Shown here: piece by piece, positions 8,113 to 18,841 of the stretch
Position numbering within the stretch: the stretch's first letter is position 1
Layout of the letters: each line of letters begins with the position of its first letter
Origin: Vicinamibacterales bacterium
Lineage (GTDB): Bacteria > Acidobacteriota > Vicinamibacteria > Vicinamibacterales > UBA8438
Assembly (NCBI GenBank): GCA_963663195.1
Contig: OY760136.1
Coordinates: forward strand, 4,359,079 to 4,423,078
DNA length: 64,000 nt
Reading direction: 5' to 3'
The notes under the pieces: model-generated
What the model was told of the DNA's origin: nothing
Database searches by the model: none
What the model saw: the letters and a program-made list of their open reading frames with translations, nothing else
Position numbers and translations under genes: made by a program

Positions 8113-9210
8113 CTATACGAAGCGGACCAGACGCACGTTGAGGGTGCGCGTCTTGCCGCCGGCGCCCTTCCACTGAACGAGGATCGGGCTCTGGTAGGTG
8201 CCCCAGCCGATCTCTCCGACGCCCTCGCCCTGGCGGTCGAGGACGGGCAGGCTGATGCCGCGCTTCATCCGCAGGAAGTGGGACACCGGCAGCGCCAGCG
8301 CCCGGTTGACCATCCGCTCGACCAGCGAGCGGCGCGCGCCGACCTGGTCCACGAGCTTGTTGAACACCTGGACCACGTCGTACTGCGCGTAGTTGAGCAC
8401 CTTGGCCGGTATGGCGCGCGGCGCCTGGAGGGCCTCCCTTCCGATCTGCTTCGCGAAGCGCAGCGGGTCGCGCAGCACGTCCCGCAGATCGTGGGTCATG
8501 AGCAGGGTTTCGTATTCGTTGACCGTCAGGCCGGCGTTGCGCTCGTCAAGGGGCAGGGAGATTTCGAATCGCCCGAACGCCACCCCGTGCTCGCGCGCCA
8601 GCGTCTCCAACTGGCCGATCAGGCCGAGGCCCGGATCCCGCAGGTTCTGGGCGTCTATGGAACGCGCCGACGCGGGCACCTGGACCTGAATGCGGGAGAC
8701 TTCCTCTTCCCCGGCATAGGCGATTACCGTCGTGCGCCTGTGCCGGGTGCCCCCGACGTGGACCCCGTCCAGCTCCACGAACCACACCGGCTCGTCCCCG
8801 CGCAGCTCGTACGACGTGGCGCTGCGCAAACCGCTCCCCATGAACGCGAGGTGCGAATCCGCATTCTGCGGCTCGACGGCGCGCTGCTGCTCCGACAGCT
8901 CGGTGCGCAGGTGCAGCTTGTCGTGGACGTAGTCGGCGCCGGCCGGAAACAGCTTCAGGAATACCTGGAGGTAGTCCTCGATATTGCCGCTGTCGTGGTC
9001 CAGCACCTTTGCGAGACGCTGGTCCAGATAGCCGGCGGTCGTGTGGTCCGAGATGTAGAACGCCTTGGGATAGCGCGTGAACTCCGACCCGAATTCCTCG
9101 CGCAGCTTGCCGCGCACATCGATCAGATCGACGCGCGAAGCCGGTTTGATGCGCAGTGTCGCGTGGAACGGCCCACCATCCGCGTGGGTGTGCCGATTGA
9201 CCAGAATCAT
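8113..9210 (-). CDS. Hypothetical protein with two tandem YjbQ/UPF0047-like domains
   Basis: Domain 1 has HTTAG, YVHD, NADSHL and FVELDG..R.R. Domain 2 has AGLTVNE, SHF and GTYQ. Confidence 0.65.
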   Translation of the reverse strand: MILVNRHTHADGGPFHATLRIKPASRVDLIDVRGKLREEFGSEFTRYPKAFYISDHTTAGYLDQRLAKVLDHDSGNIEDYLQVFLKLFPAGADYVHDKLHLRTELSEQQRAVEPQNADSHLAFMGSGLRSATSYELRGDEPVWFVELDGVHVGGTRHRRTTVIAYAGEEEVSRIQVQVPASARSIDAQNLRDPGLGLIGQLETLAREHGVAFGRFEISLPLDERNAGLTVNEYETLLMTHDLRDVLRDPLRFAKQIGREALQAPRAIPAKVLNYAQYDVVQVFNKLVDQVGARRSLVERMVNRALALPVSHFLRMKRGISLPVLDRQGEGVGEIGWGTYQSPILVQWKGAGGKTRTLNVRLVRFV

Positions 9211-9304: not shown

Positions 9305-11116
9305 TTACGCCGGGCAGCAGGGGCACGTCGGAGCGGACGGTGCGAAGCTGCTGGAGGCAGCCTGCGCCCGTCCGGGAGTGGTCGCGGGCGCCCGGGCTGC
9401 GGCGGCCGCGGCCATCGCCGCGGAGGACGTACCGGCGGCTGCGCGCACAGGCCGTTCCCCGCGCCGGGCCTGCGCCGGCCGTTCGCCGCCGCCCCGGTAA
9501 CCGGTGAAGATCTGATAGTGGCGCAGGTCCACCGTGCCGTCGATGCGGATGGCGTCGGGGCCGGTCACCTCGAAACGCCGGAACGGCTCGCCGTCGCACA
9601 GGATGAACACCTGGGCGGGATCCGGCAGGTGCGTGATGCTCCAGCTCGTCTCCTGGCCGCGGCGGTCGGGCGCGGCGGCATAGGTGCCGACGTGCAGCAC
9701 ACCGCTTGCCGCGTCGTTCCACGCCTGGTAGAGCCCGAGCGTCGGGAAGTCGACACCCTCGACGGTCGGCGCGTCGTACTTGTCGCGGTGCGGCGCATCG
9801 AACGCCCGCTGCCAGGCATCGCCCTCGCCGACCTCGGCAACCATCTGCATGGCGCTGAGCTGCCCGCGCGGATAGCCCTCGTTCAGGCCGAACCACCAGC
9901 CGAACTTCTCGTCCCGCTCGCCGAAGAAGCGCGGGTCGAACTGCCGCTCGGCGGCGGCGCGCAACCGTTCGAGCGCCGTGTGATCGCCGAGCTCGCGCGC
10001 CAGGATCAACCCGGTCGAGTCGGCCCTGATCTCCCGGCGCGGATCGTTCCAACCGAGGGCCGTGGCCGCCGCCTCATAAAGGAATGTCGCCAGCTCGGGC
10101 TGCTGCGGCAGCAGCAGGAAGGCCGGCACCAGTCCGGCCCCGGCGCCGAGGTTCATCTTGTGGTTGACGACCGGGTCGTAGTAGAGAGTGACCCACTCCA
10201 GCGCGCCGTCGCCGCCGACGCCGACATAGTTGTCACGCGCGAACTCGATCCAGCCTTCCACCGGCCGATGCGCGGTGCGGCCATGGATTCGGTCGTACAG
10301 CTGAAGCCCGAGCCCGGCGGCGCTGTTGCAGGCGAACCAGATCTTGGTGTTCTCGCAGTGTGGACCCTCGGGGCGCTCGCGGTACTGCCGCTCCAGGAGC
10401 CCGGCGATGCGGTGCTGGTCCCACTGGAACACTTCGTCGCCGTAGCCGGTCACGTCGAACGGACGCTCGTACTTGTCGTCGCCCGACACGTAGCGGTAGA
10501 CGCCGAGCACCAGGTTGAACCAGCCGCGGAAGAACAGGTTCCCCTCGGAGCCGATCGGATCGCGCGACAGGCCCCAGGGCTCGACGCCGTTCGCCGTCCA
10601 CCCGATGCGGTTGTAGCGCCCGCGCAGCCGCTCCGGAATCGCGCCCATCACCTGCTCGGGATCGTTGGCGCGACGCGGGTCGTCGCCGATCTGCGTCAGC
10701 CAGTCGATGGCGCCCCAGTAGGTCGGGTAGCGGCTGGCGAGACCGTCGGCAATGCGCGTGTACACCTCGCGCCAGGCCGGCGTCTGGTCGGCCATCACGA
10801 GCAGCGCGTACGACGAGTTGTGCAGGTCGAAGCGGCCGTAGCTGGTGACGACCGGGCTGGTGTAGCGGTCCCACCACGGGTGCGGCACGCCGTCGGCGCT
10901 CCAGTCGTCCGGCGTGGTGGCCTTCTCCCACAGGAAGCGCAGCCAGCCGCGCGCGCGCCGGTTCAGGGTGGGATGGACGGATCGGGGCGTATCCGCGAGC
11001 TGCGGGGGCGCCTGCGCGGGTTGCGCGGCGAGAGCGCCGGACGAGAGCGCGGCGGCGCCGGCGGCGCCTACCTGCTGCACGAACGCGCGCCGGGAATGTC
11101 TGTCGCTGACGGCTAT
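9305..11116 (-). CDS. Linalool dehydratase/isomerase-like protein with Tat signal and Cys-rich tail
   Basis: CENTKIWFACN resembles LDI CEPDNYFVQCN, and GNLFFRGW resembles ENIMYKGH. An in-frame SRRAFV Tat motif lies upstream of the ORF-track GTG. An ATA at 11116 follows the Shine-Dalgarno (SD) sequence AGGGAGG. Confidence 0.7.
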   Translation of the reverse strand: MAVSDRHSRRAFVQQVGAAGAAALSSGALAAQPAQAPPQLADTPRSVHPTLNRRARGWLRFLWEKATTPDDWSADGVPHPWWDRYTSPVVTSYGRFDLHNSSYALLVMADQTPAWREVYTRIADGLASRYPTYWGAIDWLTQIGDDPRRANDPEQVMGAIPERLRGRYNRIGWTANGVEPWGLSRDPIGSEGNLFFRGWFNLVLGVYRYVSGDDKYERPFDVTGYGDEVFQWDQHRIAGLLERQYRERPEGPHCENTKIWFACNSAAGLGLQLYDRIHGRTAHRPVEGWIEFARDNYVGVGGDGALEWVTLYYDPVVNHKMNLGAGAGLVPAFLLLPQQPELATFLYEAAATALGWNDPRREIRADSTGLILARELGDHTALERLRAAAERQFDPRFFGERDEKFGWWFGLNEGYPRGQLSAMQMVAEVGEGDAWQRAFDAPHRDKYDAPTVEGVDFPTLGLYQAWNDAASGVLHVGTYAAAPDRRGQETSWSITHLPDPAQVFILCDGEPFRRFEVTGPDAIRIDGTVDLRHYQIFTGYRGGGERPAQARRGERPVRAAAGTSSAAMAAAAAARAPATTPGRAQAASSSFAPSAPTCPCCPA

Positions 11117-11178: not shown

Positions 11179-13329
<2,151 letters not shown>

Positions 13330-13501: not shown

Positions 13502-16024
13502 TCAGCAGCAGCCGGGCCCGCAATCGCCGCCGTCGACGGCCGCGACCTCGCGTGCGCCGGACGGGTCGTCGACTATGACGAACGAGCCGTCGTACGGCCG
13601 GTTCGACAGCTTGGCGGCCGTATCGGTGCACACTTCAACAGGTACGCCGCGCGGGAACAGGTGGCCTTCCTCGTCGATGACCGCCTTCTGCGGACCGAGG
13701 TAGACCGCGTACTGGCCGACGAACCGGCAGCCGGCCTTCTTCTCGAACTTGTAGCCGCGCACCGTCACCGAGAAGAACCGGCAGCCTTCGACCTCGCGCC
13801 ACGGCGTCTTCTTGAGGATGGCGACGCCGTAGAAGCCGGCCCGCTCCAGAGCGCTGAGAAACGCCTCCTCCGTCAGCGCCCCGCTGATGCACTCGCCCCA
13901 CAGCCGGCCGTCGGCGCGTACCTTGGGCGGCACGTCGCGGTCGGATACGATGTCGGCGATCACGGTGCGGCCATGGTCCTTGAGGACGCGCCAGATCTCG
14001 CGCAGCACGCGCGGCTTGTCCGCCGACAGGTTGATCACGCAGTTCGACGTCACCGCGTCGGCCACCGCGTCGTCGAGCGGAATCCGTTCCAGGAACCCCT
14101 TGCGGAACTCGACGGCGTCATAACCGAGCGCGGCCGCCACCTGCGGCTGGCTGTCGCGCGCCACGGCCAGCATCTGCTCGGTCATGTCCACGCCGTACAC
14201 GCGCCCCCCGGCGCCAACCTTGCGGGCGGCGATGAAGCAGTCGATGCCGGCCCCCGAGCCGAGGTCGACCATCGTCTCGCCGGCGGCGAGCGCCGCATCC
14301 GACACCGGGCTGCCGCAGCCGTAGAATCGTTCGACCACCTCCGGGGGAATGTGCGCCAGGTCCTCCGCCGCCGGCTGCACCGGACAGCAGAGGTCTCCCT
14401 TGGGCTCCTCGGCCGCCGCTCCGTAGTACTCCCTGACCGTCAACCGCGAGCGCTCCATCACCTCTTCCGACAGCACGCAGGCGGTGTGCGTCGTGCGGAC
14501 GATGGCCTGCTCGTCGTGCAGCATGTGCTCCCCCATCGCGCGGAACACGACCGGCCGGTCGAACCCCGATCGGGCCTGCACGGTCTGACGCCCTTCCTGC
14601 GACATCTCCGCCAACGCATCGTCGGCCAGCCCCTTGTACAGGTCGCAGTAGGGATCGTGCGCCAGGAAACTCCCCCGCCGCCCCGAGCCCTCCGTGGCCG
14701 AGGTCCAGTAACCGTGCTCGAGGTCGCCGCCGCCGCACAGGAACTTGAACACGCAGGACCGGCACAGCGGCTTCTTCTCGACGCTCGCCTCGCGCAGCTC
14801 GCGGCAGACGTCGCTTTCCCGCCAGATTTCCGCCAGCGGCGCGGCGGCCAGATCACCGCAGCGCAGCTCGGGGACGCCGGCGGTGGATGCGGACGGGTAC
14901 ACCCAGCCGTCCGTGTAGAGGCAGAGGCTGTTCCAGCCGGCGCCGGCCAGGTCGTTCTTCACCCCCGGAGCGCCGTCGAGACGCAGGCGAAACTCCTCCA
15001 CGTTGTCGATGGAGACGCCGATCTCGCCGGCCCTGCGGCGCGCCCCGCGCACCGCCCGCAGAATCTCGTCCGCGGACGGCAGCTCCGCGAACGGACCGCT
15101 CAGCATCCGGCCGCGGCGGTGCGGCCAGAGCAGATGGACATTGCCGATGCCGAGCTCACCGGCGAGGCGGACGATGTTCTCCAGATCGTCGAGGTTGTGC
15201 TTCAGGATCGTCGTGGTCAGCGTGGGACGCAGGCCGGCGGACACCGCGGCCTCGAGTCCGGCAATCGTCGCGGCGAAACTCCCCCGGCCACGCACCGGAT
15301 CGTTGATGTCGGCGCTCGAGCCGTCCAGGCTGACCTGGATGCGCAGGCTGTCGACCGGCGGCTCTCCTTCGCGCGCCGGCAGCTCGATCGCCGCCAGCTC
15401 GACGAGCGCCGCGAGCCGCTTGCCCATGAGCAGCGTGCCGTTGGTGAGGATCACCAGCTCCCGGCCGCGGGCCGCAATAACATGTCGGCACAGATCGACG
15501 ATGTCGGGGCGCGCCAGCGGCTCGCCGCCGGTGAAGAACACCCGCTCCGCGCCGAGCGCCGCCGCCTGGTCGATCGCGTCAACGATCCGTCCGGTCTCCA
15601 GCCCCTGGTCGCGCGTCGGCCCGGACGAGACGAGGCAGTGCGCGCACGCCAGGTTGCAGAAGTCGTTCACCTGCACCCACAGCTCGTGGAGCGCCGCGGT
15701 CGCCAGGTACGCCGAGCGGCCCAGGTAGGGGGCCGGCGCGGCGCCGTCCGTCGACAGGAAGCCATGCCGCAACGCGTCGCCGGCGAGCGTTTCCACGTGG
15801 AGCCACGCCCGCGTCACATCGAGCCCGGAGGCGTCGGCGTACTCCCTCACCACCTGCGCGAAGGGAGTGCGGCCGTCGAACTGGCCAAGGAGCCGGATAC
15901 CGCGGTCGTCGCTGGCAAGCCAGTGCGGCCTGGCCGGGTCCAGGGCAATCGCCTGGCCATCCGTGCGCCGGACGGAGAACGCCGGCGCGCGCAGCAGCGT
16001 CCCGTCATCGATGAATGTCGGCAT
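13502..16024 (-). CDS. Fusion of PqqD/RRE-like, radical SAM, degenerate SPASM and arsenite methyltransferase (ArsM/AS3MT-like) domains
   Basis: Radical SAM/SPASM part: CNLACAHC, FTGGEP, CRSCVFKFLCGGGD...PYC. ArsM part: FYGCGSP, DLGSGAGIDC, SNCVINL, GECISGA, VEVC. C-terminal CGPGCC. Confidence 0.85.
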   Translation of the reverse strand: MPTFIDDGTLLRAPAFSVRRTDGQAIALDPARPHWLASDDRGIRLLGQFDGRTPFAQVVREYADASGLDVTRAWLHVETLAGDALRHGFLSTDGAAPAPYLGRSAYLATAALHELWVQVNDFCNLACAHCLVSSGPTRDQGLETGRIVDAIDQAAALGAERVFFTGGEPLARPDIVDLCRHVIAARGRELVILTNGTLLMGKRLAALVELAAIELPAREGEPPVDSLRIQVSLDGSSADINDPVRGRGSFAATIAGLEAAVSAGLRPTLTTTILKHNLDDLENIVRLAGELGIGNVHLLWPHRRGRMLSGPFAELPSADEILRAVRGARRRAGEIGVSIDNVEEFRLRLDGAPGVKNDLAGAGWNSLCLYTDGWVYPSASTAGVPELRCGDLAAAPLAEIWRESDVCRELREASVEKKPLCRSCVFKFLCGGGDLEHGYWTSATEGSGRRGSFLAHDPYCDLYKGLADDALAEMSQEGRQTVQARSGFDRPVVFRAMGEHMLHDEQAIVRTTHTACVLSEEVMERSRLTVREYYGAAAEEPKGDLCCPVQPAAEDLAHIPPEVVERFYGCGSPVSDAALAAGETMVDLGSGAGIDCFIAARKVGAGGRVYGVDMTEQMLAVARDSQPQVAAALGYDAVEFRKGFLERIPLDDAVADAVTSNCVINLSADKPRVLREIWRVLKDHGRTVIADIVSDRDVPPKVRADGRLWGECISGALTEEAFLSALERAGFYGVAILKKTPWREVEGCRFFSVTVRGYKFEKKAGCRFVGQYAVYLGPQKAVIDEEGHLFPRGVPVEVCTDTAAKLSNRPYDGSFVIVDDPSGAREVAAVDGGDCGPGCC

Positions 16025-16138
16025 GCGAATTCTCCCCGGCGCCGGCAACAAGCAAGCAGGGCATTTTGTCGAATCAGGTGGCCAATCGCAAACCGCGCGA
16101 CCGGCCCGTCGCACCGGCCATGGTTTCTTGGACGCGGA

Positions 16139-17446
16139 TCAGCGCGCTGGGGATTCATCCGGGCGCCGGCGCACCGCCCAGGCGGCGGCGAGCGCGGCGA
16201 TCAACAGGCCGTACTCGACCGGCTCCACCCAGCCAGGCAACACCCAGCCGGCGCCGGACGCGCGCACGGTCCACACGATGTAGGTCAGTGGCGCGGCGAG
16301 GGTCCAGGCGATCAACGGCCACGCGCGCGGCGCCGCCAGGAACGGGATCATCCAGACGAGGTACCACGGGTAGACCGTCGGTAACAGGAGGAGCGTCGCC
16401 GCGAGCGGCCACGCCCACGCCTCCGGGGCCGTTGCCGGCAGGTGCGCGCGCGCCGCGGCGGCCGCGGCCATCCCGGCGCCGACCGCGAGGGCGAACGCGA
16501 CGGGCGCGCCCACCGCGGCCTCGATCCACGCGAACAGCGGTCCGTTGAAACGCCACTGCGCGGCGTACTGCGGCAGCGAACCGATCGGGACCGTCACCGC
16601 GCCGCCGACGAACGGCAGGTACAACAGGCCCACGGCCGCGACGGCCGCCAGACCGTCGCGCAGGCGCACGCGGCGCCACAGCAGCGGCGCCAGCACCAGC
16701 GGCAGGAACTTGACGCTGAACGCCGCCGCCAGTGCGAGCGACGCGGCGAACGTGCGGCGCGCATGGAGCGCGGCAGCGGCGGCGACCACGAGCAGCGTCC
16801 CGAGCAGATCGATGTGGCCGGCCGCCGCGCCCTCGATGGCAGGCAGCGGATGCCAGGCATACACGAGCACCCACCACGGACTGCGGCCGCACGCCGCCAG
16901 CCAGCGCCACAGCAGCAGCATGATCAGCAGGTCGCACACGATCATGGCCGCGGCGACGGCCGTCACCGATTCGTGGATGGCCGTGACGGCGCGCAGGAAG
17001 AGCTGCGCGGCGGGCGGGTAGATTGCCGGCAGGACCGCGCTGGTCGGATCGATTCGGCGCGTATCCGCGGTGTGCAGCCCCGCCAGCGCCGGGTCGGCGG
17101 GCGCCGCGGCGTACGGGTTGTAGCCGTAGCGCTGCACCCGCCCGTCCCAGAGGTAGCGATAGACGTCATCGGACGCTATCGGCGCGGCGCCCAGCAGCAG
17201 GAGGCGGCCGGCGATGGCGATCAGCAGGCATGCGGCGAGCTGCCGGCGAGAACCGTGCCGGCGGCGCACCAGCAGCAGCAGCGTGGCGACGTAGGCAACC
17301 GAAGCGCCCCCGAGCAGCCACAGGAACGGCAGCGTTGCGACCCGCGCATCCAGGTGCGAGACGCCGGCCAGTAGCAGCAGCTGGGCCGCGCCGCAGGCGA
17401 GGATCCACCACGGGGCGGCGCCGCGGTGCGGCCGCGCGGTATCCAT
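16139..17446 (-). CDS. Polytopic GT-C (GT87/DUF2029-like) membrane glycosyltransferase
   Basis: SDDVYRYLWDG, NPY, YPP, YAWHPL..E...GHID, VKFLP and YPWY motifs with many TM helices. The start overlaps the upstream stop (TAATG). Confidence 0.75.
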   Translation of the reverse strand: MDTARPHRGAAPWWILACGAAQLLLLAGVSHLDARVATLPFLWLLGGASVAYVATLLLLVRRRHGSRRQLAACLLIAIAGRLLLLGAAPIASDDVYRYLWDGRVQRYGYNPYAAAPADPALAGLHTADTRRIDPTSAVLPAIYPPAAQLFLRAVTAIHESVTAVAAAMIVCDLLIMLLLWRWLAACGRSPWWVLVYAWHPLPAIEGAAAGHIDLLGTLLVVAAAAALHARRTFAASLALAAAFSVKFLPLVLAPLLWRRVRLRDGLAAVAAVGLLYLPFVGGAVTVPIGSLPQYAAQWRFNGPLFAWIEAAVGAPVAFALAVGAGMAAAAAARAHLPATAPEAWAWPLAATLLLLPTVYPWYLVWMIPFLAAPRAWPLIAWTLAAPLTYIVWTVRASGAGWVLPGWVEPVEYGLLIAALAAAWAVRRRPDESPAR

Positions 17447-18180
17447 TACCGGGATCCGTCCGGCGGCCCGTAGTAGGCGCGCGCGAGGCGCGCCGTCGGC
17501 ACGCCGGCGGCGTACCCCAATAGCAGCAGCAAGTTGAGGGCGGTCCGCCGCGTCCAACCGTCCCGCTCCCAGCGCCGCGCCGACGTCAGGATCGGGACCT
17601 CGAGGTACGCCATCCGTCCGCTGCACCGCACGCGCCGCGCCAGATCGACATCCTCCATCAGCGGCAGCGGCCGGTACCCGCCGAGCTGCTCGAACAGCGC
17701 CCGGCGCACGAAGATCCCCTGGTCGCCGTACGGCAACCCCATCCACCGGACGCGCCACGCGACACCGCGCTCCACGATCCGGGCGCGCCAGTCGGCGGAA
17801 CGCAGCGTCAGCCGCAGCGCGCCGCCGACCGTCAGCGGATCCGGGTCGATGCGGCGGATCTCGTCCAGCCAGCCCGGCGCCGGGCAGGCGTCGGCATGCA
17901 GGAACAGCAGCCACGCGCCGGACGCCGCCTGCGCGCCCGCGTTCATCTGCCGCGCGCGTCCGGGCTCGGCGACCATCCAGCGCACGGCCTCGAAGCGCGC
18001 CTGTAGCGGCCCGATCGCGCAATCCCCCGCGTCGCCATTGGCCACGATTACTTCGCAGCCGCCACTCCGCGCGATCTCGGCCGGCAACTGCCGCAGCAGC
18101 TCGCCCAGCAGCCGCTCGAGCTCCGCGGCATCGTGGAGCACCGGAATGACAATCGATACGAGCGGACTGTCAGCAACCAC
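17446..18180 (-). CDS. TIGR04283-type family 2 glycosyltransferase (rSAM/selenodomain- and arsenosugar-associated)
   Basis: SIVIPV, GRARQMNAGA, LLFLHAD, YGDQGIFVRR, LPLMEDVDL and TSARRW motifs. Confidence 0.85.
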   Translation of the reverse strand: MVADSPLVSIVIPVLHDAAELERLLGELLRQLPAEIARSGGCEVIVANGDAGDCAIGPLQARFEAVRWMVAEPGRARQMNAGAQAASGAWLLFLHADACPAPGWLDEIRRIDPDPLTVGGALRLTLRSADWRARIVERGVAWRVRWMGLPYGDQGIFVRRALFEQLGGYRPLPLMEDVDLARRVRCSGRMAYLEVPILTSARRWERDGWTRRTALNLLLLLGYAAGVPTARLARAYYGPPDGSR

Positions 18181-18841
18181 CGTCCAGCCCCAGAAAGGCC
18201 GCCGTCTCCGTCCGCACGCGGTCGATGCTGGCGGCCAGCCTGTGGTCGTCATCCAGCAGCACCAGGCGCACGTGCGCGCGGCCGTCCGCGAATCGCCGGA
18301 CCATGTCGGGGTCGACCACCTCGTCGCCGCGCCCGTGGAGGACGAGCATCGGCGTTTCCGCGCGCACCGCGAACGAGTCGTAGCGCGCGGCGTCGGCGAT
18401 CAGCTCGAAGTGCAGCCGCCGCGGCTCGTCGTATCCGTGGTGCTGCACCTCGGTCCAACCGTCCCGCCGCCAGCGCGCGAGCCAGTCCGTCTGGCGTTCG
18501 CGCATGCCGGGCGCCCCGAAGTCGAACGCGGGCGCCAGCAGCACGAGCCGCTCGACCGGGTGGGCGGGCAGCGCCGAGCGGAGGTGCTCCGCCAGGTGCA
18601 GCGCCACGAATCCGCCCAGGCTCGAACCGATCAGCGCGACCGGCGCCGGCGGCAGGCGACGCAGCGCGGCGGTTACCTGGCCGATCATCCGCGTGGTCGT
18701 CAGCGTGGAGAAATCGGGCTCGTTCAGGTCGGGACAGTGCAGCGTCAGACCGCGCGCGGTGAACTGCTCCGCCAGGAAGCGGGCCTTGCCGGAGCGGGGC
18801 GACGACGCCAGTCCGTGGAGGTAGAAGAAGTGGCGCGGCAT
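18170..18841 (-). CDS. YqiA/YcfP (UPF0227) alpha/beta hydrolase
   Basis: YLHGLASSP, GSSLGG nucleophile elbow, HGRGDEVV and DDHRL. Confidence 0.88.
   Translation of the reverse strand: MPRHFFYLHGLASSPRSGKARFLAEQFTARGLTLHCPDLNEPDFSTLTTTRMIGQVTAALRRLPPAPVALIGSSLGGFVALHLAEHLRSALPAHPVERLVLLAPAFDFGAPGMRERQTDWLARWRRDGWTEVQHHGYDEPRRLHFELIADAARYDSFAVRAETPMLVLHGRGDEVVDPDMVRRFADGRAHVRLVLLDDDHRLAASIDRVRTETAAFLGLDGGC

Follow-up and report, generated by a model that had tools for sequence, protein, structure and literature searches.

A radical SAM–ArsM fusion in Vicinamibacterales as a candidate single-chain counterpart of ArsM and ArsS

Introduction

What does a protein make when a radical S-adenosylmethionine (SAM) module is joined to an arsenite methyltransferase, and do the genes beside it take part? 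The question is raised by a 64,000-nucleotide stretch of DNA from Vicinamibacterales bacterium (Acidobacteriota; Vicinamibacteria; UBA8438; GenBank assembly GCA_963663195.1, contig OY760136.1, positions 4,359,079 to 4,423,078), hereafter the window. There, the gene for an 840-aa fusion of a radical SAM module and a long-form ArsM lies downstream of genes for an esterase, a family 2 glycosyltransferase (GT2) of the TIGR04283 type and a GT-C membrane glycosyltransferase. In Synechocystis, arsenosugar synthesis uses separate ArsM and ArsS proteins, ArsS corresponding to TIGR04167 (Xue et al. 2019 and Cheng et al. 2021, cited in the available parts of PMC8552651, PMC12159101 and PMC13598754). A sequence-only reading of the window had taken the four genes for a single candidate arsenosugar or arsenolipid pathway. 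On the strength of sequence comparisons, we propose, at a probability of about one half, that the fusion replaces ArsM plus ArsS as a self-contained, non-orthologous protein that would make dimethylarsinoyl-adenosine. That it stands in for the pair is likely in view of its distribution, complementary to that of ArsS, the neighbours shared with arsM–arsS clusters, the fusions in both orders and to TIGR04283, and its conserved Cys.

Domain architecture of the fusion protein

The fusion is encoded at 13502..16024 on the minus strand, as are all of its parts given here. Its N-terminal PqqD/RRE-like domain (about residues 1–95; 15740..16024), which the sequence-only reading had overlooked, was assigned from the structural model and from a Pfam match in a homologue, L055, where PqqD scores 33.7 bits against a cut-off of 23.4. 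This domain is followed by the radical SAM core (residues 119–288; 15161..15670; PF04055, 86.6 bits) with its CxxxCxxC motif (C123/C127/C130), a degenerate SPASM-like region (14630..14959) recognised from aligned Cys positions, a conserved Cys tail bearing C516 (14465..14503), a long-form ArsM/AS3MT domain (13502..14452) placed by PDB matches and conservation, and a C-terminal CC. Structure prediction was confident (predicted local distance difference test, pLDDT, 86.1; predicted template modelling score 0.83), and the predicted structure matched the RRE-bearing SkfB, SuiB and sactipeptide maturase 5WGG.

Conservation was read from an alignment of 61 homologues, 60 of them fused to ArsM. The CxxxCxxC Cys are invariant (61/61). 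Within the SPASM-like region the first-cluster positions are replaced in the window fusion (A360, S378, D434); a Cys at 378 and at 434 occurs in one homologue of the 61, and the full seven/eight-Cys motif is kept by L055 alone, its first-cluster Cys being replaced in the other 60. The second-cluster Cys are present in the window fusion (C421, C424, C430, C460), the first three retained in 48 of the 61 homologues and C460 in 40. C516 is retained in 60 of the 61, that is, in every fused sequence. Under a loose pattern, a Cys tail after the SPASM region was found in 63 of 74 members of the radical SAM clade described below and in 0 of 32 proteins outside it, which assigns C516 to the radical SAM module as a candidate As(III)-binding site.

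The ArsM half matched CrArsM in the PDB (5EVJ; E 6e-40), as well as CmArsM and human AS3MT, and alignment to 5EVJ and 4KW7 showed both the class I SAM-binding fold and the four Cys by which ArsM/AS3MT proteins are recognised. Its Cys C546/547, C570, C662 and C712 are each kept in 58–60 of the 61 homologues, and the terminal CC (C839-C840) in 58. Four conserved Cys are required for ArsM catalysis, as stated in the available part of PMC8552651.

Neither half of the fusion reaches a curated NCBIfam cut-off. The ArsM half scored 227.4 bits against 263 for PRK11873, 148.9 against 400 for AsSugarArsM and 192.7 against 500 for AST ArsM; a more distant homologue, P0186, passes PRK11873 with 273.2 bits. 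On the ArsS model TIGR04167 the fusion scored 52.9 bits against 300, over model positions 3–147 only, and its profile match to ArsS (E 7e-16) lies mostly in the core. The ArsS motifs DCDFNQM and HCxGCTAGxGSxC, invariant in 14 ArsS sequences, are absent from the fusion, which has the SPASM-like region instead. Nor does it show the C-terminal RCCLKC motif and arsQML context of ArsL, ending after ArsM in a tail of the CxxxCC type.

Distribution of the fusion and ArsS

The source genome consists of one contig and is 99% complete. The sequence-only reading had recognised no ArsS, TIGR04282 or ars efflux families in the window, and none was found among the 43 open reading frames (ORFs) scanned there. 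Extending the search to the whole genome, as that reading had advised, brought up TIGR04282; ArsS (TIGR04167), TIGR04169, Acr3 and ArsB were not found by the genome-wide profile search.

Among 94 genomes of the family, 27 carry the fusion and 57 an ArsS match (55 over the cut-off), with both intact in 2; one further genome, G368, combines the fusion with a 107-aa C-terminal remnant of ArsS. Within the source genus, four genomes have the fusion and eight have ArsS, with no overlap. In 50 fusion genomes reached through their loci, ArsS exceeded the cut-off in 3 and gave a split match in one. The fusion tree largely tracks the marker tree, and in ArsS-bearing sister genomes the same locus is present with the fusion slot empty and the GT-C gene running into the Tes-like gene that otherwise follows the fusion; the fusion was therefore probably lost in these sisters. 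The distribution is in keeping with a history in which two enzymes were redundant and one or the other was lost repeatedly. We rejected an in-place swap of the fusion for arsS, since the slot is simply empty in same-genus relatives, whose arsS is found at various other sites, next to a gene for a 110-aa TIGR04169-like protein. ArsS with this 110-aa partner was seen in varied neighbourhoods at L119–L122, L124–L126, L157 and L158.

Shared neighbours and the radical SAM clade

The 139 fusion loci form 28 clusters at 58% identity, of which 19 lie outside the family and have at least 4 kb of flank. Fourteen of these 19 have at least one of TIGR04282/83, DUF547, VTT, MerA-like, PiT, DUF3179 and DUF3047 within 9 kb, and the same neighbour profiles match around arsM–arsS in L127, L131 and L138. 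TIGR04283 was present in 25 of 31 fusion-bearing genomes, mostly of other lineages, and in all seven genomes with the fusion family in a phylum sample of 301 genomes, where its base rate is 101/301 (the tally takes in one unpublished genome, G073).

A homologue search covered 1.84 billion representatives, and the best 150 matches were examined. Among them, the radical SAM module of the fusion falls in a clade supported at 99 that holds ArsM fusions, DUF5714-bearing proteins, reverse-order forms and stand-alone forms. The reverse order, ArsM first and radical SAM second, occurs in three 50%-identity clusters of this clade, and one lineage, represented by three near-identical records, has radical SAM, ArsM and TIGR04283 in a single chain. 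Together with the TIGR04283 counts above, this chain supports one part of the earlier suggestion: the fusion looks biosynthetic and accompanies arsenosugar-associated genes. In the FastTree tree ArsS is placed outside this clade, but its branch is long and the placement therefore unsure; a sister relation between ArsS and the fusion clade, which we had considered, was not seen in that tree.

Several relatives differ in form. P0178, P0196, P0202, P0204, P0225 and P0233 are proteins of about 1000–1080 aa in which DUF5714 forms the C-terminal domain of a chain that also holds radical SAM and ArsM; four of the six were scanned and also resemble part of the selenoprotein MbdU. The clade member at L151:9805-11343 (G104) stands alone, with neither ArsM nor Cys tail. 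No CxxxCxxC was found in P0231, P0236, P0238 and P0256, PqqD/radical SAM/SPASM relatives that are possible pseudo-enzymes.

Proposed reaction and its difficulties

Homology and the four conserved Cys make a strong case that the ArsM domain would methylate As(III) to dimethylarsenite with SAM. As the Cys tails of ArsL and ArsS suggest, the trivalent product may then reach the radical SAM site by way of Cys thiols of the C516 tail and the terminal CC; ArsL binds arsenic through a C-terminal Cys motif (10.1101/2024.02.01.577332 and 10.64898/2026.04.29.721666, in their available parts). ArsS adenosylates dimethylarsenite, DMAs(III), and needs no reductant (available part of PMC13598754). In the fusion, a 5′-deoxyadenosyl radical would likewise add to arsenic, giving dimethylarsinoyl-adenosine. 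Loss of the auxiliary-cluster ligands would fit such a redox-neutral, ArsS-type reaction, for which auxiliary clusters would be dispensable because ArsS works without reductant. More speculatively, a nucleoside phosphorylase, the CofC-like TIGR04282 protein and TIGR04283 might turn the product into an arsenoriboside glycoside, roles that we presume from the general chemistry of these families.

A number of observations weigh against this proposal. The tree-corrected test of fusion against ArsS rests on 7 independent pairs and was not significant, with 3.5 pairs in the expected direction, 0.6 in the opposite one and a median p of 0.375 (4.0 versus 0.0 and p 0.125 when the G368 remnant is scored as absent); the Fisher p of 8e-11 obtained across genomes overstates the association. 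The phylum sample shows no depletion of ArsS, which occurs in 2 of the 7 genomes with the fusion family and in 59 of 301 overall, and 13 of the 94 family genomes have neither enzyme. Only 12 of the 54 ArsS-only family genomes gave an ArsM match with the query used here, so the exchange of fusion and ArsS is not like for like; since the other 42 gave no such match, ArsS in these genomes may use dimethylarsenic from outside or another substrate. ArsM is adjacent in only 5 of 19 ArsS loci read, and the neighbour profiles that match around arsM–arsS were built from fusion loci. The clade also includes stand-alone forms (L151, P0171, P0189) and fusions to methyltransferases other than ArsM (P0172, P0181, P0195, P0218). 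Finally, ArsS needs no peptide or protein partner, whereas the RRE-like domain of the fusion is a sign of one.

G357, G358, G360, G361, G405 and G415 have short ArsM homologues carrying a single in-frame TGA; these are probably selenocysteine forms.

Alternative functions of the fusion

The radical SAM/SPASM part could instead act as a maturase of peptides or proteins. Its RRE-like domain would then bind either a peptide or the Cys tail of the fusion itself, the bound chain would be cross-linked or arsenylated, and ArsM would supply or finish a methylarsenic group. The fusion combines CxxxCxxC with an RRE-like (PqqD-like) domain, as peptide maturases do; the nearest solved radical SAM structures are PqqE, SkfB, SuiB, TigE and ChlB, peptide maturases, each scoring far under its cut-off, make up the best NCBIfam matches of the radical SAM domain, and stand-alone clade members exist. 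Set against this, no conserved precursor peptide was found beside the fusion among 4389 short ORFs of fusion loci, where the top 14 recurring clusters read as shadow frames of neighbouring genes, although a diverged or distant precursor would escape such a search. A maturase also leaves the complementarity with ArsS and the triple fusion with TIGR04283 unexplained, and we regard it as unlikely.

The fusion could instead occupy an ArsS-like niche while making a different small organoarsenical, by an ArsL-like aminocarboxypropyl transfer or by placing methylarsenic on another carbon skeleton. Its position outside ArsS in the tree is in keeping with this, as are the two genomes that keep both enzymes, the conserved residues H297, H302, D340, D358, D434 and H437, which suggest a distinct active site, and the higher score of the ArsM half on the AST model than on the arsenosugar model, both below cut-off. 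Its neighbours, however, are of the arsM–arsS cluster type and not arsQML, and no ArsL model was among the best 25 of 79 NCBIfam matches for the fusion. We consider a different product rather improbable.

The genes upstream of the fusion

The remaining question is whether the upstream genes belong to the same pathway, as the sequence-only reading held, with an arsenoriboside loaded onto a lipid carrier and handed on to an acceptor in a lipid or at the surface. In such a scheme TIGR04283 would do the loading and the GT-C protein the transfer, and the esterase would tailor the product. The description of the layout in that reading proved exact. The four minus-strand ORFs were re-derived from the window, with the 11-bp overlap of esterase and GT2, the TAATG coupling of GT2 and GT-C and the 114-bp gap before the fusion, and their GC content at third codon positions is 0.90–0.92. 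The esterase is a YqiA/UPF0227-like alpha/beta hydrolase of 223 aa (18170..18841, minus strand; PF05728, 68.9 bits). The earlier identification of the two glycosyltransferases also stood. The 244-aa GT2 (17446..18180, minus strand; GTG start) scores 213.6 bits on the TIGR04283 model against a cut-off of 182. The 435-aa membrane protein (16139..17446, minus strand) has no Pfam match of its own, and was assigned as a GT-C enzyme of GT87/PimE/PIG-M-like type because GT87 is matched by 6 of 12 aligned homologues and its predicted fold is of the GT-C type: the model (pLDDT 86.4) matches GPI mannosyltransferase I, PimE, ArnT and ALG3. The first external loop has an acidic pair (SDD), of which D94 is invariant in 12/12.

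To follow the locus, 60 stretches around TIGR04283 from family genomes and additional loci were annotated with profiles built from fetched loci. This gave 62 family genomes with a usable locus, after rows in which the profile missed the glycosyltransferase or no downstream marker was reached had been dropped; some of these loci end at contig edges, and several of the 38 contigs compared from outside the family are short. The family keeps a conserved string, with losses by lineage: DUF2461, DUF309, SET, esterase, TIGR04283 (often with a DPM-like GT2), GT-C, msrPQ, fusion, DUF547, Tes-like, hisS and aspS. The exact four-gene layout occurs at 3 of the 62 loci. GT-C is present at 43, and 32 of these have TIGR04283 and GT-C with no fusion; the fusion is present at 16, five of them lacking GT-C. 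After correction for the tree, GT-C and fusion went together in 0.5 and opposed each other in 2.0 of 7 independent pairs. The 38 outside loci contained the esterase in none, GT-C in 3, TIGR04283 in 7 and TIGR04282 in 13, and in the 19 outside clusters GT-C was found in 4 and the esterase in none. The metagenome-assembled genomes G354-356, G367, G369 and G381 (86–100% complete), in which the searches found neither ArsS nor the fusion, also keep the glycosyltransferase pair.

TIGR04283 alone says little about arsenic, since 52 of the 101 TIGR04283-bearing genomes of the phylum sample have neither ArsS nor the fusion. In the family it is present in 90 of 94 genomes (TIGR04282 in 88), including 11 of the 13 with neither enzyme. 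The window protein lacks the DPM-synthase-like second domain found in many relatives; what it matches, with 157 of 235 positions identical, is only the first half of the two-domain protein (493 aa) of G120, from the same genus. In the family, a DPM-like GT2 fused to TIGR04283 lies just upstream in 23 of 43 GT-C loci and in 0 of 19 loci without GT-C, so the simpler view of the lipid-linked donor is that of an ordinary sugar on polyprenyl phosphate. Five of five tested genomes without the DPM half at the locus carry another DPM-like GT2, and the source genome encodes one 1.5 Mb away; most likely, that protein makes a polyprenyl-phosphate donor whose sugar, an ordinary one, is then transferred by the GT-C enzyme.

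These results do not bear out a pathway whose four genes occur together and are lost together. The expected co-occurrence stood for TIGR04283 and failed for GT-C, which does not track the fusion, and an arsenoriboside on a lipid carrier as the work of these four genes finds no support. The three upstream genes are likely left over from an older string of genes, one that is kept whether or not the fusion is present; the esterase, a lineage neighbour, is probably no part of the pathway and was rejected as a member. In favour of the pathway one can cite the tight coupling of the upstream genes, GT-C with a DPM-like GT2 in the canonical arsM–arsS cluster L127, the GT-C genes beside the fusion in outside clusters and the retention of GT-C after loss of the DPM half in three genera, and we rate it as very unlikely. 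Nothing ties GT-C to the fusion; some support for the lipid idea remains in the fusions of TIGR04282/83 to polyprenyl-sugar machinery (TIGR04283 with DPM-like GT2, DPM-like GT2 with TIGR04282 in L008, and the transmembrane (TM) domain of LPG synthase with TIGR04282).

If the role were purely one of detoxification, ArsM would do the work in place of efflux, and the rest of the fusion, its radical SAM half, would be a passenger or accessory. This would suit a genome in which the fusion's ArsM domain is the only ArsM found, an ArsC-like gene lies elsewhere and the searches for Acr3 and ArsB found neither. We consider it highly improbable, since the radical SAM half shows strong conservation in many phyla and is linked to ArsM in either order, and since several fusion genomes also keep a separate short ArsM.

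Other genes of the window and genome

A fifth co-oriented gene, overlooked in the sequence-only reading, begins 172 bp downstream of the fusion and encodes a Tes-like radical SAM protein (11179..13329, minus strand; NF045702, 308.7 against 450 bits). It is conserved at the locus across the family at about 85–92% identity and is a candidate membrane-spanning-lipid enzyme. As an arsenolipid partner it is unsupported: it stays at the family locus with or without the fusion and was found in 0 of the 38 outside loci. MsrPQ was likewise set aside as a partner, as it belongs to the ancestral string and occurs both with and without the fusion. Farther along the minus strand are genes common only to the closest relatives, for a linalool dehydratase/isomerase-like protein (9305-11080) and for a protein of 365 aa that matches nothing in Pfam or NCBIfam (8113-9210). 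A scan for promoters and terminators was uninformative, giving 1 promoter-like site against 0.4 expected and 5 terminators against 3.1 expected.

Elsewhere in the source genome, TIGR04282 is fused to an LPG-synthase TM domain 3.7 Mb from the window locus (G000:C1:672592-674325, L004; flippase-like, convergent with recR), and most TIGR04282 matches of the family sit in open frames of 570–690 aa, consistent with the same fusion. Nucleoside phosphorylase and VTT genes are also present, the former in a housekeeping-looking context. A run at G000:C1:2860775-2863805 combines a second GT-C (34% identical to that of the window) with a DPM-like GT2 and DUF547, a trio that recurs away from arsenic genes in G156, G290 and G373. 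At G000:C1:1510560-1513157, a MerA-like oxidoreductase of the arsM–arsS-cluster type lies directly downstream of an msrP paralogue.

Implications and comparison with known systems

The literature found names two radical SAM enzymes that form C–As bonds, ArsS and ArsL; the fusion, if our reading is true, would be a third, unrelated family. Organoarsenic producers among the Acidobacteriota, Nitrospirota, Omnitrophota, Elusimicrobiota, Planctomycetota and other phyla would then go unnoticed in surveys based on arsS, and one soluble protein would allow the conversion of arsenite into a complex organoarsenical to be assayed directly. No genes assigned to the later arsenosugar steps were found in the literature searched, and the fusions with TIGR04283, together with those of TIGR04282/83 with lipid-carrier enzymes, name candidates for them; adjacency of TIGR04283 and GT-C by itself is no evidence of arsenic chemistry. 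A more far-reaching version would have an RRE and SPASM peptide-maturase scaffold repurposed as the third radical C–As family, methylarsenite from its own ArsM being channelled through the Cys tail, and TIGR04282/04283, fused to polyprenyl-sugar machinery in several lineages, then carrying the arsenic sugar onto lipid to yield arsenolipids or arsenic-decorated envelopes in many uncultured phyla; taken whole, this is quite unlikely. We found no paper on the fusion or on a tested function of TIGR04282/04283 in a search that took in few subscription papers and no supplements, so a printed mention is possible. Term look-ups in PMC9582695 and PMC5552862 gave no mention of the fusion, and the ArsM fusions listed in the available part of PMC13188914 are other ones. 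What is new here is that the fusion and ArsS have complementary distributions inside a single family, that reverse-order and triple fusions exist, that the Cys tail is specific to the clade and that the four-gene operon does not hold together.

The window GT-C resembles the GT-C members of DPM/Ppm1-type GT2 and GT-C pairs (PimE, GPI-MT-I) in its fold, the acidic pair of its first loop and the DPM-like GT2 partner seen in relatives, and differs in that the partner has been lost from the window locus. In domain order and fold, residues 1–465 of the fusion resemble the RRE-bearing radical SAM/SPASM maturases PqqE, SkfB, SuiB and MftC, whereas its auxiliary-cluster Cys are largely replaced, no precursor peptide was found and an ArsM is attached. 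The ArsM domain shares the three-domain architecture and the four catalytic Cys positions of long-form ArsM/AS3MT (CrArsM 5EVJ, CmArsM 4FR0, human AS3MT 8XT7), and is set apart by the 515-residue radical SAM module in front and by its PRK11873 score (227.4 against 263 bits). Like ArsL and ArsM of arsinothricin synthesis in Burkholderia gladioli, the fusion combines a radical SAM enzyme with a long ArsM, and the C-terminal Cys motif of ArsL has been implicated in arsenic binding (available part of PMC8552651); unlike them, it has neither the RCCLKC tail nor the arsQ context, and its AST ArsM score is 192.7 against 500 bits. From ArsM and ArsS of Synechocystis the fusion differs in being one chain, in its separate radical SAM clade, in its RRE-like and SPASM-like domains and in having no TIGR04169 partner found in the genome. 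It nonetheless pairs what is by homology an As(III) methyltransferase with a radical SAM enzyme, carries a Cys-bearing segment after the radical SAM part and shares with that system the neighbours TIGR04282/83, DUF547, VTT, MerA-like and PiT.

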